From a bacterium (GTDB lineage: Bacteria; Bacillota; Clostridia; Oscillospirales; Oscillospiraceae): 64,000 bases of DNA. Position numbers and translations under genes: made by a program. Shown here in pieces: positions 13,015 to 48,128 of the stretch (its first letter is position 1; each line of letters opens with the position of its first letter). Below the pieces are notes generated by a model. The model saw only the letters and a program-made list of their open reading frames with translations. It did no database searches and was not told the origin of the DNA. The stretch lies in NCBI GenBank assembly GCA_963625685.1, contig CAVFTR010000010.1, positions 1,710-65,709 on the forward strand, written 5' to 3'.

Positions 13015-13045
13015 GAAAAAGCTCCCCTGTCGGGGAGCTTTTTTC
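13015..13045. terminator. bidirectional rho-independent terminator
   Basis: AAAAAGCTCCCC-TGTC-GGGGAGCTTTTTT. Confidence 0.7.
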
Positions 13046-13054
13046 ATGCCGTTT

Positions 13055-14221
13055 TCAGAATAAAACTCTCACGCGCAGGACGTCGTCCATGGCGCGGATG
13101 GTGTTTGCCGTGTCCTCCCAGATCTCGTCGTTAAGGTCGATGATCGTGTAGGCGTAGTGCCCGCGGGGCTTGTTTATCATATGCTCGACGTTTATGTTTT
13201 TCTTCGTTATCAGGTCGAGGATGCGGTTTATCATGCCGGGCACGTTGTGGTGGATGACGCACAGGCGGCAGACGCCCATGCGCTCGAGCTTCGCGGCGGG
13301 CAGGTTGACGGAGTTTGTGATATTGCCGTTTTTGAGGTATTCATAGAGCTGCTTTGCCGCCATCTCCGCGCAGCGGTCCTCGCTCTCGGGCGTGCACGCG
13401 CCCAGATGCGGCAGCGCGATGACGTTCTTGCCGCCGAGTATCTTCTCGTTGGGGAAGTCGGTGACGTATTTTGCGACCTTGCCGGACTCGAGCGCCGAAA
13501 GCATCGCGTCGTCGTCGACGACCTCGGCGCGGGACTCGTTTACTATCCTCACGCCGTCGCGCATGGCGGCGAAGGCCTTCGCGTCGAGCATGTGATGGGT
13601 GTCCTCGTTGTAGGGGATGTTGATGCTTATATAATCGCAGCTGCGGAATATCTCGGCGATATCGTCGGCTCTGGAAACGTCGCGCGAGAGCCGCCACGCG
13701 GCGTCGACGGACATGAAGGGGTCGTAGCCGATGACGTTCATATCCAGCGCGAGGCAGGCGTTTGCGACCAGCGCGCCCGTGGCGCCGAGGCCGAGCACGC
13801 CGACGGTCTTGCCCATGAGCTCGGGTCCGGCGAAATTCGACTTTCCCTTTTCAACGAGCGCGGGGATCTTATCGCCCTCGCCGGCGATGCTCTTTACCCA
13901 CTCGATGCTGCCGACAACATCGCGCGAGGCCATGACCATGGAGCACACGGTCTGCTCCTTTACCGCCTCGGCGTTTGCGCCGGGACTGTTGAAAACGACG
14001 ACTCCCAGCTCGGCGTATCTGTCGACCGGAATGTTGTTGTAGCCGGCTCCGGCACGCGCGACCGCCAGGAGCTCGGGGTTGAGCTCATACCCGTGCATGT
14101 CCGCGCTGCGCACGATTATGCCGTCGGGAGCCGCGATATCGGCGCCGATGCTGCAGCCCTTGCCGCGGAGCTTTTCAAGCCCGACGGGCGAGATATTGTT
14201 TATCGTTTTTATGTTATACAT
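13055..14221 (-). CDS. serA: D-3-phosphoglycerate dehydrogenase (with C-terminal ACT domain)
   Basis: 388 aa with NAD fold GVLGLGATG, a 2-hydroxyacid dehydrogenase catalytic region and an ACT-like tail. Co-operonic with serC. Confidence 0.9.
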   Translation of the reverse strand: MYNIKTINNISPVGLEKLRGKGCSIGADIAAPDGIIVRSADMHGYELNPELLAVARAGAGYNNIPVDRYAELGVVVFNSPGANAEAVKEQTVCSMVMASRDVVGSIEWVKSIAGEGDKIPALVEKGKSNFAGPELMGKTVGVLGLGATGALVANACLALDMNVIGYDPFMSVDAAWRLSRDVSRADDIAEIFRSCDYISINIPYNEDTHHMLDAKAFAAMRDGVRIVNESRAEVVDDDAMLSALESGKVAKYVTDFPNEKILGGKNVIALPHLGACTPESEDRCAEMAAKQLYEYLKNGNITNSVNLPAAKLERMGVCRLCVIHHNVPGMINRILDLITKKNINVEHMINKPRGHYAYTIIDLNDEIWEDTANTIRAMDDVLRVRVLF

Positions 14222-33922: not shown

Positions 33923-34945
33923 GTGGCTGCGCCGTCCTCCGTCATCTGTTTATATAATTTCATGAGCTCGGCAACGCATTTGCTTTCGGTCGTATCCCTG
34001 ACCGAAAAGCCGTAGGCCTGCATGACCGCCTTGTCGTTTTGCTGGTGGGCCCGCCGCAGCTCCGGCGGCATGGTGACCTCGTCGTAGAGGTCGGCGAGGC
34101 TGCACTCGGGATACAGCGCTCTCGCGTCAAGTATCGCCTGCGCGGTCTGCTCTATCCTTGCTTTCTGCTCCTCCGTCGGCGACGGCCAGGGGAAATTGTT
34201 GTAGACGATATCTTTTGAATATTGGTAACGCATTTCAAGTCTGCCGCAGACCGCCCTCATCCAAGCATTATGAACATTAGATGACAGTATGCCAAAATCG
34301 AACAGGGTAGCATTAGGGATTATAAGAGCACTTCCATTAACAATAATGTCCGGCTCAACATAACAAATGGGAATATATCTGCGATTTTCAGATGAAACTT
34401 TCGGAATTGCAATCATAGGCGTATTTGGCTGTCTAATCTCTCCAAAAATTGCAGGCGTATCTGCAAGCGCCAATGTTTGTGGTCTCTTGCTTGATTTTCT
34501 AAACTCAGCCACTTTTTTGATTCGCTCGACAACGAATCGTGATTGTTTTATTTCTTTGGGAGATTTTCCACCAAGCCAAAGGCACCATCTTTCCTTAGAT
34601 TGAAGCAACTCCGCGCCGCCAGCATATCGACGGACAAATTTAATGTTCTCTGGATTTTCTTTTAAAAGTTCTTCCAGCGCTTCTTTATCTAAAATCAAGT
34701 GTCCATCATCTATAGGCATGCTTCCATAATAAATAGGAAGCACATCACAAATCGGTCTGCTTCGATTTGCAATCAACACCGATGGTGCATCGACAAGATA
34801 CGGATTTATATTGTCGGCATTAACAACTCTGTCAGACGTAAAAATTCTTTTGGGAATACCGTTATTTCCAACGCTAAAGCCAACAATAACACAATGAACA
34901 TGCGCCTTTTCGCTGGCCTCGCTGTCCCAGCGGAAGGTGCGGTGG
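33919..34945 (-). CDS. MmeI-family type IIL restriction-modification enzyme, C-terminal fragment (TRD plus C-terminal domain), out of frame with the N-terminal fragment
   Basis: ORF track gives 33919..34779, but the frame stays open upstream to about 34962. From 34944 it reads HRTFRWDSEASEKAHVHCVIVGF...NINPYL...RWCLWL...SSENRRYIPI...RLEMRYQYS...NNFPWP. I recognise these as MmeI-family C-terminal blocks. Confidence 0.8.
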
Positions 34946-36707
34946 CAAAGTCGATGTGTACATTAACTGAATATAGCTGTCGCCAAAGAATAGGAACCTG
35001 CTCACCTTGTGTAATAGAGTTTGTTGACACAAAAGCTGCACAAATAGAAGTATTTTGCATCAACATAGCAGCTTTCATGTACCATCCTGTCACATAATCA
35101 AGGTTGCCTACTCCTTTGGCTTTCTTATCGAACAAAGCCATCAGCTCCGCTTTTTGCTCTTTCGTCTGTTCCTTCTTTCCCACGAACGGCGGGTTGCCCA
35201 TGATGTACGACAGCCCGGCCTTGGGCACGACGCTCTCCCAGTCCATGCGCAGAGCGTTGCCCTCGACGATGTTGGCGTTGGTTTTCAGCGGCAGGAAGTC
35301 GAGCTGCATGAGCACGATGCTCTCGGTCTCCTTCATCATCTGGCTCTCCGCTATCCACAGCGCCGTCTTCGCGACGGTAACGGCAAAGTCGTTTATCTCT
35401 ATGCCGTGAAACTGCCGGATGGAGACCTGGATGGGGCTCCAGTCCGAGTCGCCGAATACTATCTGGTCGTGCTGAAGCTCGCGCAGGACGTCGTTTTCTA
35501 TCCTGCGCAGGCTGATATAGGTCTCGGTCAGGAAGTTGCCCGAGCCGCAGGCGGGGTCTAAAAACGACAGCGAGGCCAGCTTCCTCTGAAAGGCCTTCAA
35601 GCGGCTCTCGCGCGTTTTCGCGACCGCGACGGCGCATATATCGTCAAGCTCCGCCCTCAGAGAGTCGAGGAAAAGCGGGTCGATGACCTTGTGGATGTTC
35701 TCTATCGAGGTGTAGTGCATGCCGCCGCTGCGCCGCGTCTCGGGGTTTAGGGTGCTTTCAAACACCGCGCCGAAGATGGTGGGGCTTATCTCCGACCAGT
35801 CGAAGCCGTCGCTCGCGCGGCTGAGCAGCAGCTCGCGTATATCGTCGGTGAAGGGCGGTATCTCGATGTCCTCGTCGGCGAACAGGCCGCCGTTCACATA
35901 GGGAAAGGCCGCAAGCTCCGGCGAATCGTCCCTGAGATAGGGGTCGCGCTCGGAAACGGGCGTGTCGAGCGTTCTGAACAGCTCGATGAGCGCACGGCGC
36001 AGCCGCCGCGCGTCAAACTGCGCGAGATAGTCGTGGAACATGCCGTGGCGGCCGAAGACCTCCGCGTCCTCGGCATAAAGGCAGAAAACAAGGCGCACGC
36101 ACAGCACGTTCAGGCTCTTCATCGCGCGCTCGCTCTCAGGGTCCGCGTACTGCGCGGCCAGCGCGTCGTATAAAAGCCCGACTATCCGGCCCGCGGCAAT
36201 GGATACCTCCATCTCGCGCTTTAAATGCTCGCTGCCGCTGTCGACCAGAAATTGCAGGCGGTAGTACTCGCGCTCCAGGTCCTCGAGCCGTATCTCCTCC
36301 GGCTCGCCGCCGGGGCGCTCCATGTCGTAGACGTGGAAGGTGCTGAAGTTGCAGGTCACGACCCAGCGCGGATGCTGCGACAGCGGCAGCTCCGTTATGT
36401 AGCGCTTTGCCTGCTGGAATGGGTTTAGCATCGAGCCGTCCGACTGGCGTATCGGCTTTTTGAGGTCCTTGCCCAGCCCCTTCTGCTCGATGAGCACCTT
36501 CGTCGAGGGTATCGAGCCGTCGATGAAGCTCGTGTGGTCAAGGTGTACCTGCTCCTCAAAGGAGATGAACTGCTCGGGGTGCTCCACGCCGTATACGTCG
36601 CGCAGCAGCGACAGCCAGAACGCCTGGCTCTCGCCCTTCTCGTAGCCCTTTCCCCTCCAGTATTCCGCAAAGCGCTTCGCCGCTTCCTGCTGCCTTACAT
36701 TGTTCAT
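34806..36707 (-). CDS. MmeI-family type IIL restriction-modification enzyme, N-terminal fragment (PD-ExK nuclease plus gamma-class N6A methyltransferase), terminated by a frameshift
   Basis: 633-aa ORF. Nuclease motif FIDGSIPSTKVLIEQKG (D-x9-E-x-K). SAM motif FLDPACGSGNF. Catalytic NPPF (GNPPFVG). After ...HIDFA the translation becomes nonsense until the stop at 34806. Confidence 0.85.
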   Translation of the reverse strand: MNNVRQQEAAKRFAEYWRGKGYEKGESQAFWLSLLRDVYGVEHPEQFISFEEQVHLDHTSFIDGSIPSTKVLIEQKGLGKDLKKPIRQSDGSMLNPFQQAKRYITELPLSQHPRWVVTCNFSTFHVYDMERPGGEPEEIRLEDLEREYYRLQFLVDSGSEHLKREMEVSIAAGRIVGLLYDALAAQYADPESERAMKSLNVLCVRLVFCLYAEDAEVFGRHGMFHDYLAQFDARRLRRALIELFRTLDTPVSERDPYLRDDSPELAAFPYVNGGLFADEDIEIPPFTDDIRELLLSRASDGFDWSEISPTIFGAVFESTLNPETRRSGGMHYTSIENIHKVIDPLFLDSLRAELDDICAVAVAKTRESRLKAFQRKLASLSFLDPACGSGNFLTETYISLRRIENDVLRELQHDQIVFGDSDWSPIQVSIRQFHGIEINDFAVTVAKTALWIAESQMMKETESIVLMQLDFLPLKTNANIVEGNALRMDWESVVPKAGLSYIMGNPPFVGKKEQTKEQKAELMALFDKKAKGVGNLDYVTGWYMKAAMLMQNTSICAAFVSTNSITQGEQVPILWRQLYSVNVHIDFATAPSAGTARPAKRRMFIVLLLALALEITVFPKEFLRLTELLMPTI

Positions 36708-37000: not shown

Positions 37001-38069
37001 CTATTTATTTGCAATAGCTTTAGAAACTTTAAAATAGTGTATCGCCATGAGCACGATGAACACGCTGCTGCAATAGCCGAATATGGGGTAGACGACGCCG
37101 ATTAGGTCGCCGAAGCCGAAGAGGCTGCCGAGGAACATGCACAGGGCGCACAGCGCGGTGAAGGGCTTTCTGCCCCGCGTTATGCGCTCGCTCTTCGCCG
37201 CGAGCATGCTCACGAAGGCCACGAGGCTCGAAAGCGCCGTGCCGAACATCGCAAGCAGCAGCAGTACGCCGTAGATATAGCCCCATGCAGCGCCGCGGCT
37301 CTGCGCCAGGGCGAGCATCGGCAGCTCCGCCGAGGCGGTCTCGGGCGCGGCGGAGACGGATACGAGCACGCTGCCGGCTATGATCAGCAGCACGCAGGCG
37401 CCGACCGCGATGCCGCCGACCGCGGCTTTTCTGCTGTTTACATACGGGCCGAGCGGCGCGATCATGGCGATGCTGCCGAATACGTTATAGCAGGCAAAGC
37501 TCACCGCCGCGACGAGCCACGAGCTCATCAGCGGATTGCTGCCGCCGGCCGATTCCGGCAGGACGACGCCGTTTGCGCACACGCTCATGACGCCGAAGAC
37601 GAGCGTTACGACCGACAGCACCGGCACCGTGGCCGAGAAGGCCGAGACCATGCCCGAAAAGCCCGCCAGCGATACCATCGCGACGAGCGTGACGAATACC
37701 GCCGAGCCTACAAACGGCGCAAGGCCGAACAGCTGGCTCAGAAGCGCGCCTATGCCGGCGGACATGATCGTACCCACGCCGAACAGGAACAGCAGCTCCA
37801 GTATCAGGACCGCGCAGCGCAGCAGCGGCACGTTCCAGCACACGACGAGCCTGTCGATCTCGCGCAGCCCCGTGAGCCTGCCCAGCAGGATCATCACGAC
37901 GCCCGTTAAAAACAGCAGGCCCACGGCTATCAGCAGTCCGGCGGCGCCCTTCGCGCCGAAGGAGCCGAAAAACTGCCACAGCTCCTGTCCGGAGACGTAG
38001 CCGGCTCCCAGAAAGCAGCCGGCAAACGCCAGCCCCAGATTGAAGCATCCTATTTTTTTGATAGCGCAT
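37001..38069 (-). CDS. YkvI-family membrane protein, reading frame interrupted in an A7 run near the 5' end
   Basis: ORF track 37001..37924 (GTG). The same frame upstream encodes ...IGCFNLGLAFAGCFLGAGYVSGQELWQFF, the conserved YkvI N-terminal GAG..SGQE motif, with no canonical start. An ATG at 38069 (MRYQK) is in another frame. Removing one A from the A7 run (plus-strand T7 at 38053-38059) joins them. Confidence 0.7.
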
Positions 38070-38121: not shown

Positions 38122-38763
38122 TCAGCTCTGCCCCTCGGCGAATTGGCAGACCGGACGCAGTGTGCAGCGCTCGCAGCCGGGCCTTCGCGCGGTGCAGACG
38201 GCGCGGCCGTGCAGCACGATGCGGTGGCAGAAGTCGGAGCTCTTCTCCGGCGGGAGGCAGGAGCGCAGCTCGCGCTCGATCTTTTCGGGCTCCTTCAGTC
38301 CGTCGACGAGACCCAGGCGGTTGGATATGCGTATGCAGTGCGTGTCCACGACGACCGAGCCGGGCAGTCTGAATATATCGCCGAGGATGAGGTTGGCGGT
38401 CTTGCGCCCGACGCCGGGCAGCTTCAGCAGCTCGTCCATGCTCCCCGGCACCCTGCCGCCGAAATCACGCACGAGCATCTGCGCGGCGGCGACGATATCG
38501 CGGGCCTTGGCCCTGTAAAAGCCGCAGGAGCGCACGTATCGCTCGACCTCGGTCACCTCGGCCGCGGCAAAGCTCCCGAGCGTCGGGAAGCGCTCAAACA
38601 GCGCCGGCGTTATCTCGTTTACGCGCGCGTCGGTGCACTGCGCGGCAAGCCGCACGGAGAACAGGAGCTCATAGTCCTTTTTATAATCGAGCGTGCAGTC
38701 GGCGAGGGGGTAGGCCTCCTCCAGCAGCCGCACTATCTCCGAAACCTGCTGCTTTGTGCGCAT
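38122..38763 (-). CDS. nth: endonuclease III
   Basis: ORF track 38122..38979. The real start is the ATG at 38763, after GAGGTGA. HhH-GPD motif LPGVGRKTANL and C-terminal 4Fe-4S ligands C-x6-C-x2-C-x5-C are present. Confidence 0.9.
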   Translation of the reverse strand: MRTKQQVSEIVRLLEEAYPLADCTLDYKKDYELLFSVRLAAQCTDARVNEITPALFERFPTLGSFAAAEVTEVERYVRSCGFYRAKARDIVAAAQMLVRDFGGRVPGSMDELLKLPGVGRKTANLILGDIFRLPGSVVVDTHCIRISNRLGLVDGLKEPEKIERELRSCLPPEKSSDFCHRIVLHGRAVCTARRPGCERCTLRPVCQFAEGQS

Positions 38764-38854
38764 ATATATCACCTCTTCACGGTATTTTAACACATACTCG
38801 GCCGCCGCGCCACAGCAAATGCGGCCGGGCTCAAAATTTTCCGGAGGAAAACAC

Positions 38855-40114
38855 ATGTACAAGCCTCTTGCAGACGAAATAAGGCCGCGCAGCCTCGACG
38901 ATGTGGTCGGCCAGAAGCATATCCTCGGCAGCCGCGGCCTGCTGCGCCGCATAGTCGAGAGCGGCAGCGTTCCGAACATGATATTCTACGGCCCCTCTGG
39001 TACGGGCAAGACCACGGTCGCGCGCATAATCGCGGAGAAAACGAACCGCACGCTGCGCAAGCTCAACGCCACGACCGCCGGACTTTCGGATATCAAGGAG
39101 ATCATCGCCGAGCTCGACACGCTGCTGACCCCCGGCGGCGTGCTGCTGTACCTCGACGAGATACAGTATTTCAATAAAAAGCAGCAGCAGTCGCTGCTGG
39201 AGTTTATCGAGGACGGGCGCATAACGCTGATCGCCTCGACGACGGAGAACCCGTATTTCTGCGTGTTCGGCGCTATCCTCAGCCGCTCGACGGTGTTTGA
39301 GTTCAAGCCGGTAACGCCCGAAGAGGCAGAGCCGGCCGTGCTGCGCGCGTTCAGCATGCTCGCCGAACGCGAGGGCCTGTCTCCGGAGCTCGAGCCGGGC
39401 GTTGTACAGCGGATAAGCCGCTCCTGCGGCGGCGACGTGCGCAAGGCCCTAAACGCCGTGGAGCTGCTGTTTTCCGCCGCCGAGCGCGATGGGGACAGGC
39501 TGATAATAAGCCTCGCGGATGCCGATACCGTCACGCAGAAAAGCGCGATGCGCTACGACCGTGACGGCGACGAGCACTTTGACGCGCTGTCGGCGCTGAT
39601 GAAATCGCTGCGCGGCTCGGACCCGGACGCCGCGCTGCACTATCTTGCTCGGCTGCTGGAGGCCGGAGATCTTGTCGGAGCCTGCCGCAGACTGCTGTGC
39701 TCTGCCAGCGAGGATATAGGCCTTGCCTATCCGCAGGCGGTGCCCATCGTCAAGGCCTGCGTGGACTCGGCTCTGCAGCTCGGTCTGCCCGAGGCACGGC
39801 TCCCGCTCGCCGAGGCGGCTATCTTCCTTGCGACCGCGCCGAAGTCGAACAGCGTCGTCATGGCCATAGACGCCGCGATAGGCGACGTGCGCGCCGGTAA
39901 GAGCGGCCCGCCGCCGCGCGAGCTTCAGAACGTACACGCCGACGGCACGGGCTTTGAGCGCGAGCAGGGCTATAAATACCCGCACAGCTACCCTAAGCAC
40001 TGGGTGCGCCAGCAATACCTGCCGGACGCGCTCAAGGGGGCGCGCTACTACGATTACGGCGACAACAAGCTTGAGCAGACAGCCAGAAAATACTGGGACG
40101 AGATAAAAAAGTGA
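38855..40114 (+). CDS. rarA: replication-associated recombination protein A (AAA+ ATPase RarA/MgsA)
   Basis: ORF track 38756..40114. ATG at 38855 follows GGAGGAA. Contains PLADEIRPRSLDDVVGQ, Walker A GPSGTGKTT and the C-terminal MgsA block YKYPH. Confidence 0.9.
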   Translation: MYKPLADEIRPRSLDDVVGQKHILGSRGLLRRIVESGSVPNMIFYGPSGTGKTTVARIIAEKTNRTLRKLNATTAGLSDIKEIIAELDTLLTPGGVLLYLDEIQYFNKKQQQSLLEFIEDGRITLIASTTENPYFCVFGAILSRSTVFEFKPVTPEEAEPAVLRAFSMLAEREGLSPELEPGVVQRISRSCGGDVRKALNAVELLFSAAERDGDRLIISLADADTVTQKSAMRYDRDGDEHFDALSALMKSLRGSDPDAALHYLARLLEAGDLVGACRRLLCSASEDIGLAYPQAVPIVKACVDSALQLGLPEARLPLAEAAIFLATAPKSNSVVMAIDAAIGDVRAGKSGPPPRELQNVHADGTGFEREQGYKYPHSYPKHWVRQQYLPDALKGARYYDYGDNKLEQTARKYWDEIKK

Positions 40115-40124
40115 GGTGCAGATC

Positions 40125-40313
40125 ATGCCGATGGACATACGTGTCGGCGACGTGCTGACGATGAAAAAGGCGCACCCCTGCGGCGAAAAGCGCTGGCAGG
40201 TGCTGCGCATCGGCGCGGACTTCAAGCTCCGCTGCCTCGGCTGCGGCCGCGAGGTCATGGGCCCGCGCAGTAAATTCGAGAAGAATATACGGGACATAAG
40301 CCGCGCTGAATGA
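40125..40313 (+). CDS. DUF951-family small protein
   Basis: About 62 aa. MPMDIRVGDVLTMKKAHPCGEKRWQVLRIGADFKLRCLGCGR is the typical DUF951 pattern. RBS GAGGTG. Confidence 0.7.
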   Translation: MPMDIRVGDVLTMKKAHPCGEKRWQVLRIGADFKLRCLGCGREVMGPRSKFEKNIRDISRAE

Positions 40314-40378: not shown

Positions 40379-41542
40379 TCACTTTATATGGTTTACAACA
40401 TCCGCCCACTGCTTTGTGCGTGTGTACAGGGACTCGAGAATAGCATATTCTCTTGTGGTATGATTCCACTCGCCCTGGATGCCGCAGCTGCACAGGGACG
40501 GCACGCCGGCTATTACGGCGTAGGCCGCATCCGAGGAGCCGCCGATATGCTTGAGCGGGAAGTCGCCGAAGCCGTCCTCCACGCAGATATCGTGGACCTT
40601 CCGGTACAGTTCCATGACGCTCTCGGTGCACTCAAAGGGCAGCATCTCCATCTGATATTCCATGGTGGTCGTCGTGCCTTCGATATAGGTCTTCGCCGCA
40701 ATCTCCTCGATCTTTTTCTTTACCTTCTGCATTTCTTCGACAGAGGTCGCGCGCACGTCAAACGTCGCCTCCGCGTGGGCCGGAAACGCGCCGAAGTTCG
40801 TGCCGCCGTGGATGACGTCGACGCAGACCGTGGTGCCGACGTCGAGATTCGTAAGTGCCTGAATATCGCTGACCTTTCTGCACAGCTCTGCGATCGCGTT
40901 TCTGCCGCGTGCAAAGTCGTTTCCGGCATGTGCAGAGACGCCCTCGACATACAGCGCCACCTCGGTCTTGCCCTTACGGGAAACACAGAGGTCGCCGCCA
41001 GGCAGACCGGTTTCCATATTGAGCATGAACTCGCCGCCGCGGCAGAATTCCTCGAACTGAGCCGCGGTATTGCCGTACTTGTGCAGCTTCTCTTCATCGG
41101 GAGCAAAGCAGATCTTGAGCGGACGGCCCTCATAGCCGATCTCCTTGAGTGCCTTGCAGACATACAGCGCGATAACGATGCCGCCTTTCATATCCAGAAC
41201 GCCGGGGCCGTGGACCTTGCCCTCCTCGTCGATCTCGAAGCCGCAGGGGAAGGAGCCGGGTTTGTGAACGGTATCCATGTGGCCGCCGAATATGATGGGC
41301 TTGCCCGGACGGTCCTCTCCGAGGATGCCGGTGAGCATGTCGCCGCTTTCATCCGTGCCGACATCGCTCAGCCTGCAGCTGAAGCCGACTTCCTCGAACA
41401 GTTCCATAAGCATCCTGCCCATGGCGCGCACATCCTCCGGGGCGCTGTGGTAGCTCTCCTGCAGGATGACCCTGCGGTAGGTCTCAAGCATCTCCTCTCT
41501 GTGGGACTCGACATATGCGTTTATTTTTTCAAGATCAGTCAT
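40379..41542 (-). CDS. M20-family metallopeptidase (carboxypeptidase G2 / ArgE-DapE-ACY1-like)
   Basis: 387 aa with metal ligands in GGHMDTV, GPGVLDMKGG and APDEE. Last gene of the GRE operon. Confidence 0.85.
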   Translation of the reverse strand: MTDLEKINAYVESHREEMLETYRRVILQESYHSAPEDVRAMGRMLMELFEEVGFSCRLSDVGTDESGDMLTGILGEDRPGKPIIFGGHMDTVHKPGSFPCGFEIDEEGKVHGPGVLDMKGGIVIALYVCKALKEIGYEGRPLKICFAPDEEKLHKYGNTAAQFEEFCRGGEFMLNMETGLPGGDLCVSRKGKTEVALYVEGVSAHAGNDFARGRNAIAELCRKVSDIQALTNLDVGTTVCVDVIHGGTNFGAFPAHAEATFDVRATSVEEMQKVKKKIEEIAAKTYIEGTTTTMEYQMEMLPFECTESVMELYRKVHDICVEDGFGDFPLKHIGGSSDAAYAVIAGVPSLCSCGIQGEWNHTTREYAILESLYTRTKQWADVVNHIK

Positions 41543-41572
41543 TGCGTTTTCCTCCTTCTATTGTAATTGATA

Positions 41573-42757
41573 TTACAGTATCTTTGAGATAAAATTCGCC
41601 AGCACGACGGAAAGCAGGGTAACATTCGTAAAGCCGGCGATGACATAGGCCGTTCCGAGCTTTTCGGAAATATGATCGCGTTCTGCATCGGTCTTGCCGA
41701 CAGCGATGGCGATCTCGTCGGAAATCAGCTGCGTACCTGGATAACCGATCATCTGGCACATTGCAATGCCCAGTGAAAGGCTTTTTGAACCGCATATCCT
41801 CCACAGCGGAGTAAAGCGGAAGGCCAGGACCAGGATGATCATGACGAACGCAAATATAACGAGCGCGTTGAAACCGATGACAGGGATCTCCGAAATGTCG
41901 ATTTTCGCCAGCGAAGGGATCATAGTGATCATGGTAAGGAAGCTGAAGAAGCCGACCGACTTCGAGTTGTCTCTCAGGAAGTGGCTGGGGACGAGGCCCA
42001 AATTCCTTGCCGCGATGCCGAGGATCATGCTCCACATCGTCTGGCCGATCCATCCGTTGGTGGCGTTGCCCAGAAGATACGCCAGGAAAACGAGCGTACC
42101 CGCGATCGCAAGGCAGACAAAGTTGCTGTAAAAGTGTATGTGCTTCTGCCAGAACAGCAGCTTCTCCTCGCCCTTTTCGGATTTGGACTCGGTTTCCGCG
42201 CTGTGATCCCGCTTGCTGTACTCCTCCATCAGCTGATTTGCGTACTTAAGGCCGCCGTTGGAGGCAGGGAGCGTGGCGACAAGCTTCTGCGTGGCATAGA
42301 TGAACGTAGCCAGCGCCGCGCAAGTCGGAAGTCCGACGTTTTCGGCCGCCGTCACCATGGTATTTGCCGCGACGACGCCGCCGGCGATTACCGGCATGCT
42401 GACGAGGGCCGACTCTCTTCCGATGATCGGAATAGCTATCGCGCAGCCCAGCACCGCCAGAAGCAGAGAGATCGTCGCCGTGAGAACGGTGCGCCATTCT
42501 TTTTTGAGCTCCGCCAGGCCGACGCTGCTGCCCATATCGACAAGGAGAAATTGCAGTCCTATTCCGGTCACGTAGGTCAGGTTTGCGGTAGTACAGATAT
42601 CGTCGGGGATAGCATGGGTCAGAAACAGGACCAGAAAAGTCGCCATGATGACAAACATCGTAGACACTTTTGCCTTCGTCAGCACCCCGATGATATCTCC
42701 GAAGGCGAATACCAGCAGGATGATGAACAGGGCTCCAAACGTTGTCAGATTCGTCAT
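41573..42757 (-). CDS. polytopic membrane protein, putative transporter (family not recognised)
   Basis: 394 aa. Two blocks of about 5-6 TM helices are separated by a charged loop (EEYSKRDHSAETESKSEKGEEK). Located 30 nt upstream of the M20 gene. Confidence 0.55.
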   Translation of the reverse strand: MTNLTTFGALFIILLVFAFGDIIGVLTKAKVSTMFVIMATFLVLFLTHAIPDDICTTANLTYVTGIGLQFLLVDMGSSVGLAELKKEWRTVLTATISLLLAVLGCAIAIPIIGRESALVSMPVIAGGVVAANTMVTAAENVGLPTCAALATFIYATQKLVATLPASNGGLKYANQLMEEYSKRDHSAETESKSEKGEEKLLFWQKHIHFYSNFVCLAIAGTLVFLAYLLGNATNGWIGQTMWSMILGIAARNLGLVPSHFLRDNSKSVGFFSFLTMITMIPSLAKIDISEIPVIGFNALVIFAFVMIILVLAFRFTPLWRICGSKSLSLGIAMCQMIGYPGTQLISDEIAIAVGKTDAERDHISEKLGTAYVIAGFTNVTLLSVVLANFISKIL

Positions 42758-42795
42758 ATCTTTATCCTCTGAATCAGTTGCTCTGTGCTTTTATC

Positions 42796-43284
42796 TTACA
42801 TAAGGCCCATAAGGACAAGGATGAGCCGCATCAGCAGCATGCCGATAACGGAATCGAAGATCGGGACGAGGAGCATCAGCGGCTGCCTCTTGGACTCGAC
42901 GCCGCAGACCAGAACTATTCTGGAGAAGTGGCCGATCAGTGTGCCCATCAGCATGCAGGGAATGATCAGGATCGTACACTGTGCAGCGGTCAGAATGCCC
43001 TCACCGAACAGCGAGGCAGCTGCGGCAGCGCCGGCAGCCTTGGAGAAGAACGCCGACAGCAGAACGGCCGAGGCCTCGCCGGGAAGTCCGAACACGCGCA
43101 TAACAGGTCCAAAAACTACGGCCAGAATGTCCATAAGGCCGGTCAGGGTCAGAAACTGCATGACGACATAGCCGAGGATCATGGAAGGAAGAACAGTCTC
43201 GACGCCGATGTAGAAGCCTCTCTTCGCGCCGCCGAGGAAAACGTCGATAATGGGTTTTTTCTTGGTGTTTGCAGCTTCAGACAT
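42796..43284 (-). CDS. YjiG/SpmB-like nucleoside-recognition-domain membrane protein
   Basis: 162 aa. The start pattern IDVFLGGAKRGFYIGVETVLPSM is typical of YjiG/SpmB-type proteins. Located 2 nt after the YjiH-like gene. Confidence 0.65.
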   Translation of the reverse strand: MSEAANTKKKPIIDVFLGGAKRGFYIGVETVLPSMILGYVVMQFLTLTGLMDILAVVFGPVMRVFGLPGEASAVLLSAFFSKAAGAAAAASLFGEGILTAAQCTILIIPCMLMGTLIGHFSRIVLVCGVESKRQPLMLLVPIFDSVIGMLLMRLILVLMGLM

Positions 43285-43286
43285 GA

Positions 43287-43922
43287 TTAAGCCTCCTTAT
43301 TTTTCTTCTCTTCGAGAGTCAGGACAAGTCTTACAAGGTTCGCGCCCAGTATTTTGCAGAAGAACAGGACGACGATAACGGGACCGGCGGCGAAGAGGAT
43401 GATGGGAAGCAGCGCCGCCTGCGTGTTCATGGTGTTGAGAACGACCGCTGAACCGGCATACTGATATGCCGCGAAAATGGCGCGTTCCTTCTCGGTGAGC
43501 TTGCCTTCGTTGTAGAGGTCTCTGGTCATGACAGAGCCGACGTCGGAGCTGGTAAAGGAGGAAACGAATGCGATGCCGCACTCACCGGGGATACCGAGCA
43601 CCGGCCTGAGGATGGGGGTGAAGAGCTTGACGCCGGCGTCAATGGCTCCCAGCTGGGTGACGACGTCGATGATGGCGACTGCAAAGGCGATCGCGGGGAT
43701 CAGGCTGAGCGCCTGCATCATACCCTCTCTTGCGCCTGCGCCGCCCTTGCCGATGAAGTTCTGTCCGCTCTCACCTATCGTTCCCCAGGAGCCGACCAGG
43801 TTGGAGAAGTCCAGAGCCTGCAGCGGGCCGTCGACATTTTTCAGAACGCCCGAGAACATGATACAAAGGACGAGCAGCGCCAGCCAGCCTTTGATGCCTA
43901 CTTTGTTTTCTTTCTGTTCCAT
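43287..43922 (-). CDS. YjiH/SpmA-like nucleoside-recognition-domain membrane protein
   Basis: ORF track 43287..43991. The likely start is the ATG at 43922, after GAGGT. Polytopic, paired with the YjiG-like gene. Confidence 0.65.
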   Translation of the reverse strand: MEQKENKVGIKGWLALLVLCIMFSGVLKNVDGPLQALDFSNLVGSWGTIGESGQNFIGKGGAGAREGMMQALSLIPAIAFAVAIIDVVTQLGAIDAGVKLFTPILRPVLGIPGECGIAFVSSFTSSDVGSVMTRDLYNEGKLTEKERAIFAAYQYAGSAVVLNTMNTQAALLPIILFAAGPVIVVLFFCKILGANLVRLVLTLEEKKNKEA

Positions 43923-44016
43923 AGTGTACCTCAATCCTTTTTTATTATAATCATTTACACTTAACGCTGCCGCAGGCGGAAGCGCTTGCATACAGTTTTT
44001 CCGACGGAGGGAGTTC

Positions 44017-44913
44017 TCAGCGGAAATCCGCGAGCTCGACTCCCTCTTCCGCGACGATCTTCCTTAAATGCTCCATCTCCTCGGCGGAGGGACGGTAGAA
44101 CTGCTCGCTCCGGTATGGCCGGCCTATCGCTTCGTACTTTATCATCCCGAAGCTGTGATACGGCAGGAGCTCCATCCTCGCCTTCGGGATATTGGCATGC
44201 ACGAACGCGGCGGAGCGGCGGATATTGTCCTCGTCATTATTTACGCCGCCGATTACCGGGATGCGTATCACGGCCTCGCCAGGCAGCTTTTCGAGTCTTT
44301 TCATGTTCTCCAGTATCTTTTCATTGGCAAGGCCCGTATATTTTTTGTGGACCGCGCTGTCGATATGCTTGAGATCCATGAAGATCAGGTCCATCCGCTC
44401 CAGTGACTGCCTGACCGTCTCGAACTCGAAATATCCGCTGGTCTCGATCGTCATGCCGTAGCCCATGTCGTATATATGCTCTGTCAGATAGTTCAGAAAT
44501 TCCGGCTGACCGGTGGCTTCGCCGCCCGAAAAGGTGATGCCGCCGCCGCTCATTGCGTAGAACAGGCGGTGCTTCTGAACAGACTCCAGTATCTCATCGG
44601 CGTCGACCTCATACACCATAAAGCAGCGTGCATTTGTCGGGCAGACCTCGGTGCACCTGCCGCAGGCAATGCATTTATCGCGCTTCTCGTTGAGGTTTAT
44701 GCCTATGCCCTGCGGGCACACGGCCGCGCATTTGCCGCAGCCGATGCACTTGCGCTGATGCCAGCCGACCAGCGCTCTGCGGCTGAAGCCCTCGGGATTT
44801 GAGCACCATTTGCAGCGGAGCGGGCATCCGGCGAGAAATATGGTCGTCCGGATGCCGTTTCCGTCGTTGACGGAAAAGGGCTGCAGCTGCATTACATAGC
44901 CTTTTACGCTCAT
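44017..44913 (-). CDS. glycyl-radical enzyme activating protein (radical SAM, with two auxiliary 4Fe-4S motifs)
   Basis: 298 aa with radical-SAM CPLRCKWC, plus CIGCGKCAAVCP and CIACGRCTEVCP. Its start overlaps the GRE stop (TGATG). Confidence 0.9.
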   Translation of the reverse strand: MSVKGYVMQLQPFSVNDGNGIRTTIFLAGCPLRCKWCSNPEGFSRRALVGWHQRKCIGCGKCAAVCPQGIGINLNEKRDKCIACGRCTEVCPTNARCFMVYEVDADEILESVQKHRLFYAMSGGGITFSGGEATGQPEFLNYLTEHIYDMGYGMTIETSGYFEFETVRQSLERMDLIFMDLKHIDSAVHKKYTGLANEKILENMKRLEKLPGEAVIRIPVIGGVNNDEDNIRRSAAFVHANIPKARMELLPYHSFGMIKYEAIGRPYRSEQFYRPSAEEMEHLRKIVAEEGVELADFR

Positions 44914-47285
44914 CAGAACTCTCCGTGCGCGTTTCTTGCCATGATGGAATCCTGCATTTCCCTGGAGAGATTAGTGAACTGTGCCGAGTAGCCGGCGACG
45001 CGGACCAGAAGGCTCCTGTATTTCTCGGGGTTTTTCTGTGCGTCGGCCAGCACCTCGTTGGAGATGCAGTTGAACTGCACATGGAAGCCGCCGAGCGCGA
45101 AATACGACTGGAGCATCGCGCCCAGATTCGCGCGGCCTCTCCTGGTCGCGACAAGATCGTGATTGAGCCGCAGGTTCAGCAGAGTTCCGCCGCTGTGGAT
45201 ATCGTGCTCCATCTTCGCGGCGCTGCGAAGCGCTGCAAGGCAGGTCGATGTGTCCGAGCCGGTGTAGGGCGAAACGCCCTCGTTGATCGGATCCCTTGCG
45301 CGGCGGCCGTCCGGAGTCGCTCCCAGCACCTTGCCGGTAGGCAGGTAGTTGGAGATGCCCATGAAGGCCGTCACGAAGTGATTGCCGTACAGGTCCTTAT
45401 AGCCGGTGACCTCCGAATAGAAGAACTCCTCCAGCAGCCTCGCGATGGAATCGACGTAATCGTCGTCGTTGCCGTACTTGGGGCAGGCCAGCGCCTCCTG
45501 TCTGAGCTGCTCATAGCCCTCCCAATTGGCGTCGATCGCATCAATGATGTCCGAAAGCGTATATTTCTTTTCTTCAAAAACGAGTTTTTTGATGACCGCC
45601 AGAGCGTTTGCGGTAACTGACAGACCGACGCCGGTGAACACGGGCCCGATATTGTACTTTGCTCCGCCGTCCACAAGATCCCTGCCGTTTTTCATGCAGT
45701 ACTCGTTGCATACGGACATGAACGGACGGTGGCCGATCTCTCTGTGTATCTCCTGTGCGGTGACAAGAGAGATGACGCCCTGCTTTACAAGATAGCCGAA
45801 CTGCTTTTTCCATGCCTCGACGATCTCGTCAACGGACGTAAAGGTCCTGGGATCCTTTTCGGGAACGGATACCTGCTCGTTTGACAGGCGGCTCCTTCCT
45901 TCGTTGAGCGCAAACTCAAGAGCGGCGGCAAAGCTGATGCTCGCAGCGGAGGTCCACTGGAAGGTCTTTCTGGAGTGGGGCACGACACAGCCGCAGTTGT
46001 TCCAGTCCTTCGCGTCCTTTGGCTCGTAGCCGAGGTTTGAAAGCATCTGGTAGCCCGTGCGGTCGCCGTGGATCGCGGGGAAGCCGCAGCCGGTGGATAC
46101 GAGCTCCGTGACTGCCTCCATGAACTCGGGCGGGCAGTCAGGATGGATACGGCAGCTGAGCGTGGGCTGATGCGTCATGCACTCTCTGGTCGCCTGAAGC
46201 GCCATATAGGATATCGTGTTGGTCGCATCCGTGCCGTCGACCTTTGTGCCGCCGATCGTCAGGTTCTCGAAGTTTGTATAACCGGCGAAGAAGCCGGCGG
46301 TGTTCTTGGAAATGGTCCAGGCCCACTCGGAATACTTCAGCCACAGGCACTCGACATACTCGAGTGCTGAATCGTAATCGATCCTTCCGGCCTTCAGGTC
46401 CGCCTCGTAATAGGGATACATATACTGGTCAAAGCGGCCGGGGTTCCATGCCAGGGGATTTTCGGAAATGATGCCGCCCAGCTGTACGAACCACACGAAC
46501 TGTATCGCCTCGCGGAAGCTCTTTGGCGGGTTTGCGGGAACAGCGGCGCATATCCGCGCTATCTCCCCGAGCTCGGCCTTTCTCTTCGGGTCGTTCTCGG
46601 CAGCGGCCATTTCCGCCGCCTTTTCGGAATAACGGCGGCCGAGCGCCATCATGCCGTCGGCGATCAGGATAGCCGATCTGTAGAAATCTATCTTCTTTTT
46701 CTCCTCGGGGATAGCCTCGTTAAGGCCGCTTATATATTCCTCGGCCTCCTTTTTGATGCCCGCGTAGCCCTTCGGCAGCAGCACGTCGATATAGTCGGCG
46801 GATATCTCGCCAATGCCGTTTCTCCACTTGGAGTCGGTGTCAAGAAATCCGGTATCGACGCCGATCTTCCTGGTCGCCTCTGAGGTGCGCGCAAGGAAGG
46901 CTTCCTCGACGCTTTTGCCCTTCCAGTAGGGGAAGATGTTCTCGCGTATAAATTTTGTCTGCTCGGGCGTTACATCGTACGGGTCCTGTCCCCTCTCCGG
47001 GAACGTGTCGATCTCGTCATTGATCCACAGCCAGCCGAATTCCGGCGTCAGGATCGCACATTTGCGGTATTCGCCGCTCGTGCCGACGACGAGCTCGCCC
47101 TCCCATATATTCACCGACAGCTCATTGCAGGTGTCCTTGAAGGCCTGTGCGACACGTATAATGTGAGGAAGTCCTTCGGTCCTCTGAAAGGATTTCGTCC
47201 AGCTCCACGCTCTTTCGTAAGAGATATGCGGCTTTGTATTGACATAATTTTGACGGATCTTTTCCACTCTTTCCGTGATGGCCAT
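44913..47285 (-). CDS. glycyl radical enzyme, PFL2/glycerol-dehydratase-like family, substrate unknown
   Basis: ORF track 44913..47369. The likely start is the ATG at 47285 (MAITERVEKIRQNY), giving 790 aa. C-terminal glycyl-radical motif RVAGYS (Gly765). Cys loop NNCGCVVPH (Cys431/Cys433). Confidence 0.9.
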   Translation of the reverse strand: MAITERVEKIRQNYVNTKPHISYERAWSWTKSFQRTEGLPHIIRVAQAFKDTCNELSVNIWEGELVVGTSGEYRKCAILTPEFGWLWINDEIDTFPERGQDPYDVTPEQTKFIRENIFPYWKGKSVEEAFLARTSEATRKIGVDTGFLDTDSKWRNGIGEISADYIDVLLPKGYAGIKKEAEEYISGLNEAIPEEKKKIDFYRSAILIADGMMALGRRYSEKAAEMAAAENDPKRKAELGEIARICAAVPANPPKSFREAIQFVWFVQLGGIISENPLAWNPGRFDQYMYPYYEADLKAGRIDYDSALEYVECLWLKYSEWAWTISKNTAGFFAGYTNFENLTIGGTKVDGTDATNTISYMALQATRECMTHQPTLSCRIHPDCPPEFMEAVTELVSTGCGFPAIHGDRTGYQMLSNLGYEPKDAKDWNNCGCVVPHSRKTFQWTSAASISFAAALEFALNEGRSRLSNEQVSVPEKDPRTFTSVDEIVEAWKKQFGYLVKQGVISLVTAQEIHREIGHRPFMSVCNEYCMKNGRDLVDGGAKYNIGPVFTGVGLSVTANALAVIKKLVFEEKKYTLSDIIDAIDANWEGYEQLRQEALACPKYGNDDDYVDSIARLLEEFFYSEVTGYKDLYGNHFVTAFMGISNYLPTGKVLGATPDGRRARDPINEGVSPYTGSDTSTCLAALRSAAKMEHDIHSGGTLLNLRLNHDLVATRRGRANLGAMLQSYFALGGFHVQFNCISNEVLADAQKNPEKYRSLLVRVAGYSAQFTNLSREMQDSIMARNAHGEF

Positions 47286-47326
47286 TTTCGTTCTTCCTTT
47301 CCTGATCAAATAATGATCCCATTCTC

Positions 47327-47400
47327 GGTTGTGCAGAAACCGCGCTTTTTTGTGCGTTATATTGCACAACCAACATACTGCATCGTCATAAATAAGTCAA
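47327..47400 (-). promoter_or_regulatory. GRE-operon promoter plus repeated TGCACAA operator-like motif
   Basis: On the minus strand, TTGACT (47400-47395), 17-nt spacer, TATGTT (47377-47372). Immediately downstream is GGTTGTGCAatataacGCACAAaaaagcgcggtttcTGCACAACC (47371-47327), containing three motif copies and a 9-bp outer inverted repeat. Confidence 0.5.
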
Positions 47401-47484
47401 GCTGCTTTTCGATCTCTTTGATAATTTTAGGTAATACTAACATATGTGAAGTAGGCAATTTGGTGAAATTGACATATCAGGGCA

Positions 47485-47527
47485 TAATAAAACCGGGGCC
47501 GCAGCGGAAATTTCTGTGCAGTCCCGG
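47485..47527 (-). terminator. terminator candidate downstream of the XRE-cupin regulator
   Basis: On the minus strand, an imperfect GC hairpin CCGGGACTGCACAG...CGCTGCGGCCCCGG is followed by TTTTATTAT. Confidence 0.45.
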
Positions 47528-47561
47528 CTATATTCCGGTGCAGTATAGTGTTCAGATTTGC

Positions 47562-48128
47562 TTAGTCCTTATAAACCACGATGTTGACCAGCGTCGTCGT
47601 TTTATCGCTCGAATTGTGGTACATATGGGGCTGATCGGCTGCGAAGGAGATCGCGCTGCCGGGCTGTACCTCATACTTCTGTGCACCGACGAACAGCTCC
47701 AGTGTGCCCCCGAAGACGATCAGATATTCCATCGTACCTGCGGCGTGAGGCTCCGAGCTGCTGGAGGCGCCGGGGTCGAGCTCGATGTAAAGCATCTCAA
47801 AGGGCCTGTCTGCGCTGACGGGGAAATAGGGATACAGGCGCATGAGCTTATCCTCGCTCTGCATCATGTCGACATTTTCCTTGCCGACGAGCATGACGCT
47901 TTCCTGGCCGTGCTCGATCAGGGATGTGAACGGAACATGCAGGCCGGACGCGATCTTCCAGAGAGTAGAAACAGACGTATTGGTCTCAGCGCGCTCTATC
48001 TGGCCGATCATGCTCTTGCTGACTCCTGAAAGTGCGGCGAGCTGATCCATGCTTAGCTTCTGCCTCTCACGGAAGGTTTTCAAGTTGTGTGCGATGATCC
48101 CACAGACATAATCTGCATTTTCTTTCAT
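47562..48128 (-). CDS. XRE-family HTH transcriptional regulator with C-terminal cupin domain
   Basis: 188 aa. The HTH is QLAALSGVSKSMIGQIERAETNTSVSTLWKIA. The C-terminal beta-barrel region is PuuR-like in architecture. Confidence 0.85.
   Translation of the reverse strand: MKENADYVCGIIAHNLKTFRERQKLSMDQLAALSGVSKSMIGQIERAETNTSVSTLWKIASGLHVPFTSLIEHGQESVMLVGKENVDMMQSEDKLMRLYPYFPVSADRPFEMLYIELDPGASSSSEPHAAGTMEYLIVFGGTLELFVGAQKYEVQPGSAISFAADQPHMYHNSSDKTTTLVNIVVYKD

Follow-up and report, generated by a model that had tools for sequence, protein, structure and literature searches.

What does a glycyl radical enzyme (GRE) act on when its gene is followed by genes for membrane transport proteins and a peptidase-like hydrolase? 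The question is raised by a seven-gene locus in an Oscillospiraceae genome (GenBank assembly GCA_963625685.1, contig CAVFTR010000010.1), which we analysed within a stretch of 64,000 bp (contig positions 1,710 to 65,709; hereafter the window, to which coordinates refer unless one of our locus numbers, L001 onwards, is given). All seven genes, as delimited by open reading frame (ORF) listing and translation, lie on the minus strand between 40379 and 48128 and encode an XRE-cupin transcription regulator, the GRE, its radical SAM activating enzyme (activase), a YjiH-like and a YjiG-like membrane protein, a 394-aa polytopic membrane protein and an M20 metallo-amidohydrolase. We found that the GRE belongs to a discrete clade that has lost a glutamate kept by its characterised relatives, and that genes for the other proteins recur beside members of this clade in shuffled order. 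We lean slightly towards reading the locus as a two-module catabolic unit, in which a regulated GRE core would be supplied by a feeder for uptake and amide hydrolysis.

An eliminase-type GRE without the eliminase glutamate

The 790-aa GRE (44913-47288, minus strand; ATG at 47288, ribosome-binding site AGGAAG) comprises PFL-like (PF02901, 676.9 bits) and Gly_radical (PF01228, 108.1 bits) domains, carries the glycyl radical motif RVAGYS with the predicted radical site at Gly765, and has a catalytic Cys434 that aligns with Cys489 of CutC. It has the features that define the superfamily, namely a PFL-like barrel, a C-terminal RVxG domain, a Cys-loop cysteine and a cognate radical SAM activase. The activase (298 aa; 44017-44913, minus strand) contains a CX3CX2C motif and two ferredoxin-like motifs and scored 311.6 bits against TIGR02494 (cut-off 174); in fold and cofactor the GRE-activase pair itself is ordinary. 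An AlphaFold2 model of the GRE (pLDDT 88.7, pTM 0.90) was matched to CutC by Foldseek with a TM-score of 0.97 and an rmsd of 1.7 Å, and the predicted fold is that of a canonical eliminase-type GRE barrel. Low-confidence segments of the model (approximately residues 150-160, 330-340, 440-450, 640-650 and 670-680) mostly correspond to stretches specific to the clade described below.

Sequence comparison placed the enzyme outside the characterised GRE groups, as a first-pass annotation of the window had supposed. It fell under every NCBIfam functional (equivalog) cut-off, including those for CutC (TIGR04394; 710 versus 1050), HpsG (596 versus 1000), HypD (543 versus 1100) and the arylacetate decarboxylases acting on indoleacetate (377.5 versus 1100) and 4-hydroxyphenylacetate (340.7 versus 1150), and it also missed the PFL2/glycerol dehydratase subfamily cut-off (PFL2-3; 624.1 versus 678.2). 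No small-subunit gene was found between the GRE and activase genes, unlike the arrangement for 4-hydroxyphenylacetate decarboxylase. The best match in a PDB sequence search was CutC (586-614 bits, the catalytic domain giving 604-614 bits and the long Klebsiella pneumoniae form a summed 697 bits), with HpyG at 594 bits, glycerol dehydratase at 518 bits and PFL as the most distant match at 118 bits. Identity with K. pneumoniae CutC is 38.8% across 786 residues; the GRE does not, therefore, sit at high identity inside a clade of known substrate, and it falls into a 50% identity cluster of its own.

A departure from these relatives lies in the Cys loop, which reads GCVVP rather than GCVEP (C434-V435-V436), so that the CXE motif of eliminases and isomerases is absent. 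The first-pass annotation had correctly read the RVAGYS motif and the protein length and had overlooked this substitution. The CXE glutamate is kept, and is hydrogen-bonded to the substrate, in all six C-O eliminases, CutC, three C-S lyases and three isomerases, it is essential in CutC and IslA, and the eliminases and isomerases, all of which bear it, include glycerol dehydratase (GD), propanediol dehydratase (PD), HypD, HpyG, CutC, IslA, HpsG, HplG, YbiW and PflD (PMC13450708, June 2026). Pairwise alignment with CutC revealed replacements of Tyr208 by Ser153, Asp216 by Glu161, Glu491 by Val436 and Tyr506 by Ser450, with the equivalents of Phe395 and Thr502 retained. In CutC, Asp216, Tyr208, Tyr506 and Glu491 are said to have been assigned choline-binding roles by Bodea and colleagues in 2016. 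From these replacements we infer a larger and strongly polar pocket that would fit a zwitterionic or acidic ligand, and a chemistry that would be independent of deprotonation of a substrate hydroxyl by glutamate.

It is scarcely conceivable that the enzyme is nonetheless a CutC-type lyase of choline or another quaternary amine, or some other known eliminase whose motif has changed. CutC is its best match in both sequence and structure and shares Phe395 and Thr502 with it, yet the glutamate essential in CutC is a valine, three further pocket residues (D216, Y208 and Y506) are replaced, the score lies below the CutC cut-off as given above, and no microcompartment or aldehyde-processing genes were seen in the region of the window examined. 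Assignment to CutC or any other known eliminase was rejected on the motif, the pocket residues and the HMM cut-offs.

A discrete and widespread GRE clade

A scan of one genome per species recovered 57 loci with GREs 51-95% identical to the window GRE; the next sequences were at most 39% identical, with no intermediates. The clade as a whole spans 51-100% identity. The loop W[NS]NCGCVVPH.RK was present in all 58 clade sequences that cover it, with Val436 invariant throughout, whereas every outgroup with a readable loop had GCVE. When the library was clustered at 50% identity the clade formed one cluster plus fragments, with CutC as its nearest representatives (35-38%), and by sequence the CGCVVPH clade is placed as the sister clade of CutC, a drug target of which it is the nearest relative. 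Within the clade 253 of 791 positions are invariant, and residues that are invariant here and rare in the outgroup include D150, D152, S153, K154, W155, R156, E161, E276, H373, H407, C432, H438, R440, R521, D632, E670 and H698. Because the glutamate has been lost and the pocket loops have been rebuilt with invariant acidic and basic residues, an amino-acid-type substrate and a non-canonical chemistry are suggested: the substrate would be a small zwitterionic or acidic amino-acid-type compound, and the reaction would be something other than a glutamate-assisted 1,2-elimination.

The clade is common in gut and rumen metagenomes, and single 90% clusters hold hundreds of members or occur on more than 100 contigs. 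Its cultured carriers include Anaerotignum lactatifermentans DSM 14214, Intestinibacter bartlettii DSM 16795, Sedimentibacter hydroxybenzoicus DSM 7310, Terrisporobacter petrolearius JCM 19845, Anaeroglobus geminatus F0357, Lucifera butyrica and Clostridium sp. MD294. Our literature search found no paper describing the CGCVVPH clade; searches on GREs with M20 proteins and on GREs with 2-aminobutyrate yielded neither a description of the clade nor functional information, and in a paper on the urate pathway GREs appear in the reference list alone. In Treponema (L001, L002 and L089, approximately 1-7700) the regulator, GRE and activase genes lie beside integrase, D5-type primase and AbiEii genes. 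The Treponema GRE is 81% identical to that of the window and the regulator only 37%, which points to horizontal transfer of the GRE-activase pair.

Two irregularities were noted among clade members. The GRE is broken into two ORFs in L055, L058 and L061, which may reflect frameshifts or assembly errors. The activases of L026, L027, L031, L042, L050, L059, L072 and L092, mostly crude ORF calls, measure only 246-257 aa compared with 298 aa in the window and seem to lack the ferredoxin-like insert.

Facultative linkage of clade GREs with hydrolase and transporter genes

Neighbours were counted at 40 species-level loci whose flanks extend 5 kb or more upstream and 6 kb or more downstream. The activase accompanied the GRE at all 40, the XRE-cupin regulator at 23 and a GntR regulator at seven. 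An M20 protein of the window subfamily was found at eight loci, an M20D protein at three, YjiH/YjiG at five and the 394-aa protein at two; IlvA and IlvE were found at seven and six, respectively. The first-pass annotation had proposed looking for a conserved GRE-activase-yjiHG-M20 neighbourhood, and with M20 at 8/40 and YjiHG at 5/40 loci no such general conservation emerged. An independent M20-anchored scan of metagenomes returned 79 loci, at which YjiH stood beside M20 in 35 cases, YjiG in 31, the 394-aa protein in 12 and a GRE in 11. The pairing of YjiHG with a peptidase, already remarked upon in the first-pass annotation, is thus recurrent, and all 11 GREs adjoining the window M20 subfamily carry CGCVVPH.

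Beside clade GREs the M20 gene occurs in at least eight arrangements, in most cases accompanied by YjiH/YjiG, the 394-aa protein or a DUF5058 pair. The window order, XRE followed by GRE-activase-YjiH-YjiG-394-M20, is repeated in L007, L014 and L093-L098. L092 has YjiH-YjiG-M20-394-M20 upstream of GRE-activase, with a GRE 60% identical and accessory proteins 53-73% identical to those of the window, and Sporomusaceae, Pelosinus and Lucifera loci together with L163 and L164 have GntR-GRE-activase-M20-YjiH-YjiG followed by pyruvate:ferredoxin oxidoreductase (PFOR) or a second M20. The order is XRE-M20-YjiH-YjiG-GRE in L111 and L112; in L126 and L127 YjiH-YjiG-M20-DUF5058-partner is convergent with GRE-activase-XRE; and L087, L088 and L119 read XRE-GRE-activase-HTH protein-DUF5058-partner-M20-394 (M20 46% and 394-aa homologue 49% identical). 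GRE-activase-M20 alone is seen in L052 and L128, and a divergent arrangement in a Bacteroidaceae genome (L047). These arrangements span Oscillospiraceae, Negativicutes and Bacteroidaceae and extend over three phyla, with GRE identity down to 51%, so that linkage of the GRE with the M20, YjiHG and 394-aa genes, as first seen in the window, recurs in distant clade members. By our own rough estimate a family of one to three copies per genome would be co-located within 10 kb by chance at about 1% of loci; the observed 20%, the shuffled gene orders and the spread over three phyla therefore argue for function rather than chance.

It might be objected that the GRE-activase and M20-transporter units are independent and are neighbours in this lineage by chance. 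Each module is found alone far more often than with the other, and the GRE-activase pair looks mobile, as its 81% identity beside an integrase/primase island in Treponema illustrates. Adjacency without a shared pathway is nevertheless very doubtful, given co-location in at least eight gene orders and three phyla down to 51% GRE identity, a frequency of 8/40 far above the rough expectation, the restriction of GREs next to the window M20 subfamily to one clade, and intergenic gaps of 2-94 nt with no good terminator in the window. Because M20 and YjiHG are absent near most clade GREs, and most M20-YjiHG modules have no GRE, the accessory genes are best described as an optional feeder and not as an obligatory part of the pathway.

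Other clade members have different surroundings. Downstream of the Treponema XRE-GRE-activase genes by the integrase/primase island come an ABC transporter and a LacI-type regulator, downstream of those of Anaerotignum an AEC-family transporter, an aldolase-like pyridoxal phosphate (PLP) enzyme and a B3_4 protein, and the Clostridium sp. MD294 locus consists of the three core genes (regulator, GRE and activase) only. In rumen Mogibacterium/Anaerovoracaceae (L010-L013, L048 and L049, approximately 1900-13300; L008 and L009) the GRE-activase pair either ends a leuA-leuC-leuD-leuB-AAA-ilvA-ilvE string, the GRE lying 15-31 nt behind ilvE, or directly follows an aspartate kinase gene at a distance of 15-29 nt. 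D-serine ammonia-lyase and two N-acylamino-acid-racemase/OSBS-type proteins join the GRE and M20 genes in L044, and PFOR and RidA lie downstream of YjiG in L056. The enzymes found in the GRE's place beside M20 modules, or flanking the GRE, are IlvA, IlvE, DpaL, DsdA, the N-acylamino-acid-racemase type, RidA and PFOR, all of which act on amino acids or 2-oxo acids. We infer that the GRE holds the position of the consuming enzyme in feeder loci, and that these loci have as their common theme the uptake and hydrolysis of an amide-linked amino acid conjugate followed by conversion towards a 2-oxo acid.

Such neighbours could equally be taken to mean that the GRE acts on a 2-oxo acid such as pyruvate or 2-oxobutyrate, either as a PFL/TdcE analogue or as an aldehyde-forming radical decarboxylase in a tdc-like arrangement, with the M20 protein and transporters merely delivering amino acids that other enzymes deaminate first. 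In E. coli the tdc operon brings together genes for a dehydratase, a transporter, a GRE, RidA and a serine dehydratase. Features that would suit this explanation, which we regard as unlikely, are IlvA and IlvE immediately upstream at gaps of 15-31 nt, D-serine and diaminopropionate ammonia-lyases, RidA and PFOR in various lineages, and an invariant second cysteine two residues before Cys434 (CGC). The loop C432-G-C434 does not contain the adjacent Cys-Cys pair of PFL, the score on the PFL model TIGR01255 is 138.3 against a cut-off of 994.2, PFL is the most distant of the PDB matches, and the fold and sequence are of eliminase type; moreover, the extra cysteine is also present in an outgroup that retains the glutamate (L060), and the window unit has neither a deaminase nor an aminotransferase.

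Several neighbours were set aside as partners. RidA as a recurrent GRE partner was rejected, being confined to one locus. A divergent threonine-aldolase-family PLP enzyme adjoins the GRE in Anaerotignum (L003/L004, 14747-16477) and Anaeroglobus (L055, 8650-9684), the two sharing 52% identity, and tRNA-editing-like proteins occur as a free-standing B3_4 protein in Anaerotignum and a YbaK-like protein in L088 (12880-13353) and L119. Together these may hint at a non-proteinogenic amino acid product; as a general partner the tRNA-editing-like genes were rejected, each being limited to one lineage, and they are kept as a hint only. The LeuA/LeuC/LeuB-like genes near the GRE of Anaerotignum lactatifermentans are on the opposite strand and differ in size (463, 642 and 332 aa), so they were not counted as a Mogibacterium-type association; they may encode citrate-branch enzymes. 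Neither was the Clostridioides difficile-like L038 counted as linkage, its 394-aa homologue and M20D gene being 6 kb away with ZIP-transporter and LytTR two-component genes between.

Hydrolase and membrane proteins of the proposed feeder

The M20 metallo-amidohydrolase (387 aa; 40379-41542, minus strand; PF01546 Peptidase_M20 and PF07687 M20_dimer) has no signal peptide and is only distantly related to CPG2, its best PDB match (1CG2, 87 bits). Its putative metal and catalytic residues H88, D117, E150, E151, E177 and H361 are invariant in 12 GRE-linked homologues; we take them to be the counterparts of the CPG2 di-zinc ligands and catalytic glutamate. A member of its 90% cluster is named glutamate carboxypeptidase by one source. 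Where M20 modules lack a GRE, they come with AbgT or DcuC-like transporters, Amidohydro_3, IlvA-like enzymes or diaminopropionate ammonia-lyase.

The two Gate-domain (Pfam) proteins form the adjacent pair expected of YjiH and YjiG. The YjiH-like protein (ORF 43287-43991, minus strand) is 40% identical to E. coli YjiH, and because the alignment begins at residue 25 we favour Met24 (43922) as its probable start. The YjiG-like protein (42796-43284, minus strand) scored 178.9 bits against PRK10519 (cut-off 111) and is 35% identical to E. coli YjiG. A literature search on yjiG/yjiH found no functional information.

The 394-aa polytopic membrane protein (41573-42757, minus strand) had no Pfam match even at E = 10 and no NCBIfam match, and belongs to a family of approximately 330 members of which the few named ones are labelled hypothetical. 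Its AlphaFold2 model (pLDDT 81.6) gave CitS as all of the top eight Foldseek matches (TMq 0.58-0.60, best 0.59, E = 2e-4), and on this predicted CitS-like (2-hydroxycarboxylate transporter) fold we read it as a putative carrier of carboxylates or acidic amino acids. Among its relatives at loci without a GRE, some adjoin an M20 protein, an AEC-family transporter and gamma-glutamyltranspeptidase, others gamma-glutamyltranspeptidase together with an L-serine dehydratase subunit.

Regulator, candidate operator and extent of the unit

The XRE-cupin regulator (188 aa; 47562-48128, minus strand; HTH_3 52.5 bits, Cupin_2 47.8 bits) is PuuR-like, with a PuuR score of 47.5 against a cut-off of 211, and has 1Y9Q as its best PDB match. 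Between it and the GRE gene a consensus scan identified a sigma-70-like promoter candidate (47372-47400, minus strand; TTGACT, 17 nt spacer, TATGTT; 9/12 matches), of which the TTGACTTA block is conserved in L007, a 95% relative. Just downstream of this candidate lies an operator-like palindrome, TTGTGCAATATAACGCACAA, with the core GTGCnnTATAnnGCAC (47350-47369, minus strand); it belongs to a block of approximately 20 nt, TGGTTGTGCAATATAA(C/T)GCACA, that is nearly fully conserved between the window and L007 while the surrounding spacer has diverged. Allowing one mismatch at most, GTGCnnTATAnnGCAC has 11 matches in 1.69 Mb of fetched DNA, nine of them no more than 700 nt upstream of a clade GRE or its regulator, at eight loci (the window and seven others) from an Oscillospiraceae metagenome-assembled genome (MAG), Anaerotignum, Sedimentibacter, an uncultured Clostridia MAG, Anaerovoracaceae, Veillonellaceae and Synergistaceae. 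This distribution is good evidence for a conserved regulator-operator pair, in which the XRE-cupin regulator would probably bind GTGCnnTATAnnGCAC.

A second perfect 9-nt inverted repeat, GGTTGTGCA and TGCACAACC spaced 27 nt apart (47327-47371), has one arm in common with the operator-like palindrome; the other arm has diverged in L007, and the repeat could be a second operator or a 5'-UTR hairpin. In L087 the XRE-cupin regulator and the GRE are separated by an inserted PhdYeFM/ParE toxin-antitoxin pair (7037-7659).

The first-pass annotation gave the regulator gene a terminator of its own. RNA folding of 47470-47565 did locate a hairpin at 47482-47534 (minus strand; stem GCCGGG.CUGCA.../...UGCGG.CCCGGU) followed by the U-tract UUUUAUUAU, and a terminator here is plausible; the folding energy of the 96-nt stretch is unexceptional, however (z = -1.26). 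For the remaining genes its map was reproduced: the activase ATG and the GRE TGA have base 44913 in common (TGATG), and the subsequent gaps are 94 nt before YjiH (counted from Met24), 2 nt between YjiH and YjiG, 38 nt before the 394-aa gene and 30 nt before M20. Terminator-like matches on the minus strand within the unit are 5-pair stems in coding sequence, no commoner than in shuffled sequence, so no convincing internal terminator was found, in line with the first-pass annotation, and the gene spacing alone suggests that the unit is co-transcribed. It stops at the M20 gene because the next gene, encoding a RarA/MgsA ATPase (38756-40114, plus strand), is convergent; a weak terminator-like hairpin lies between the two (40172-40193, minus strand; 8-pair stem with three G-C pairs and a T-run). 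An Rfam search of the unit returned no element, and a riboswitch or T-box as a clue to the ligand was discarded, as neither the window unit nor any of 13 related loci contained one.

Two further minus-strand features of the window lie beyond RarA. An MmeI-family type IIL restriction-modification gene (33919-36707) is split into an ORF with MmeI_N, helicase spacer and methyltransferase domains, the last broken off at position 228 of 259 (34806-36707), and an ORF with target-recognition and C-terminal domains (33919-34779); either a frameshift has made it a pseudogene or the sequence contains an error. A polytopic membrane protein of 307 aa (37001-37924) bears a faint resemblance to AgcS amino acid carriers and has no Pfam match at E = 10.

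Proposed pathway

The two-module unit that we favour would work as follows. Its first module is the conserved, horizontally mobile core of XRE-cupin regulator, GRE and radical SAM activase, in which the regulator may sense a small ligand through its cupin domain and control the GRE promoter at the GTGCnnTATAnnGCAC palindrome. The optional second module comprises YjiH/YjiG, the CitS-fold carrier and the M20 hydrolase. YjiHG and the carrier would import an amide-linked acidic or amino acid compound, candidates being N-acyl and N-carbamoyl amino acids and dipeptides, in which there may be an acidic residue, or would exchange substrate for product. The cytoplasmic di-zinc M20 enzyme would then release a compound from its amide precursor for conversion by the GRE. 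The activated GRE would abstract a hydrogen atom via Cys434 and carry out a conversion that dispenses with a hydroxyl-deprotonating glutamate; His438, Glu161, Cys432 and the Arg/Lys cluster may serve in catalysis or binding. In other lineages the GRE product appears to enter 2-oxo acid metabolism. As substrates we would name, in this order, glutamate or aspartate, a beta-functionalised or D-amino acid, and a 2-oxo acid, each on its own an unlikely guess. A literature search found no described pathway of this composition, in agreement with the first-pass annotation.

The first-pass annotation had also raised the reverse order, in which the intact amide-linked compound would be the GRE substrate and the M20 enzyme would hydrolyse what the GRE makes. 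The pocket is enlarged relative to CutC (two Tyr to Ser, Glu to Val), has many charged invariant residues and could accommodate a dipeptide-sized ligand. We consider this order quite unlikely. Many clade members consist of regulator, GRE and activase with no hydrolase nearby, and because of these loci neither the substrate nor the product of the GRE should need a dedicated hydrolase.

Several observations weigh against hydrolysis followed by radical conversion as the function of the locus. Approximately 80% of species-level clade loci have no M20 gene within 10 kb, and a GRE is missing from approximately 75% of the well-flanked M20 loci; the coupling is facultative, and a general clustering of amino acid catabolic genes could account for it. 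The ilv/leu, aspartate kinase and AEC/PLP contexts are not obviously explained by one substrate. The M20 protein scored under functional cut-offs (PRK06133, 166.3 versus 349; PRK07338, 168.5 versus 357), the fold match of the 394-aa protein to CitS is moderate (TM 0.59), and the GRE pocket residues were derived from alignments and not from model coordinates. The case is built on gene content, motifs, predicted fold, clade limits and recurrent linkage.

Since a residue deemed essential to the mechanism of its relatives has been lost, the clade reaction is probably new. A more specific proposal, which we make tentatively and hold to be rather unlikely in this form, is a reaction new to GREs: a radical conversion that requires no base and acts on a common amino acid, acidic or beta-functionalised, or on the corresponding 2-oxo acid. 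Examples would be the omega-decarboxylation that turns glutamate into 2-aminobutyrate or aspartate into alanine, with the CitS-fold protein exchanging precursor for product, or else a radical isomerisation or C-C cleavage. The hints in this direction, none of them decisive, are the lost base glutamate, the charged pocket, the carboxylate-transporter partner, the placement after ilvA-ilvE or aspartate kinase, PFOR and RidA downstream, and the tRNA-editing-like proteins of two lineages.

Significance

The chemically demanding anaerobic reactions of GREs shape the production of the host-relevant compounds trimethylamine, p-cresol and skatole, and of sulfite that feeds H2S formation. Unannotated GRE clades are already known, and whole GRE clades remain untested (2026 review, PMC13450708); what is new here is the CGCVVPH clade with its changed motif, its own probable regulator-operator pair and a recurrent, facultative set of hydrolase and transporter genes that would act as a feeder. 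The clade is a good target for study, being close to CutC, common in gut and rumen metagenomes, highly conserved and mechanistically anomalous, with CGCVVPH as a clean sequence signature. The regulator and operator could report the inducer, and the linked hydrolase and transporters narrow the GRE substrate to amide-linked acidic or amino acid compounds. The linkage also places the orphan YjiH/YjiG proteins, and an unannotated transporter family with a predicted CitS fold, in a functional context for the first time. If a new reaction type is confirmed, the formate-lyases, decarboxylases, X-succinate synthases, eliminases and isomerases would be joined by a further class, found in bacteria common in the human gut and rumen.

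Comparison with known systems

CutC/CutD is the known system closest to the window GRE in sequence (38.8%) and structure (TM 0.97), with similar Gly and Cys loops and an activase with a ferredoxin-like insert. The window GRE differs in its missing catalytic glutamate, its changed pocket residues and its membership of a discrete clade, and no microcompartment or aldehyde dehydrogenase genes were seen with it. The hydroxyproline-type GREs (HypD, HpyG 8ID1 and HpzG 8IOF) are the second-best relatives, with matches of 594 (HpyG), 503 and 480 bits, and act on amino acids, and Intestinibacter bartlettii, the source of HpyG, also harbours the CGCVVPH clade. They keep CXE, with the glutamate hydrogen-bonded to the leaving hydroxyl, whereas the clade has valine and a different pocket. 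The E. coli tdc system (TdcB dehydratase, TdcC transporter, TdcE 2-ketobutyrate formate-lyase and TdcF RidA) likewise places a GRE amid genes for amino acid uptake and deamination, and some lineages have RidA, PFOR and dehydratases next to clade members; TdcE, however, is of PFL type with a Cys-Cys pair, while the window GRE, with C-G-C, belongs to the eliminase type and reaches only 138 bits on the PFL model.

For the feeder, the nearest parallel is the E. coli yjiH-yjiG-iadA cluster, which we confirmed to be contiguous in K-12 as the first-pass annotation had stated. Its YjiH (40%) and YjiG (35%) are orthologous to those of the window, have identical order and are likewise linked to an amide hydrolase, the isoaspartyl dipeptidase IadA; the window hydrolase is an M20 protein and not an amidohydrolase-superfamily enzyme such as IadA, and the window adds the GRE, the activase and the putative CitS-fold transporter. 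AbgAB-AbgT, which handles p-aminobenzoyl-glutamate, follows the same logic of a carboxylate-type transporter and a cytoplasmic M20 hydrolase, and AbgT, DpaL and Amidohydro_3 adjoin the window M20 subfamily at loci without a GRE. In anaerobic urate breakdown YgeY-YgeX pairs an M20 ureido-hydrolase with diaminopropionate ammonia-lyase, again an M20 enzyme followed by one that consumes the freed amino acid. The window M20 scores 71.5 against the YgeY cut-off of 321, and the place of the consuming enzyme would here be taken by a GRE.

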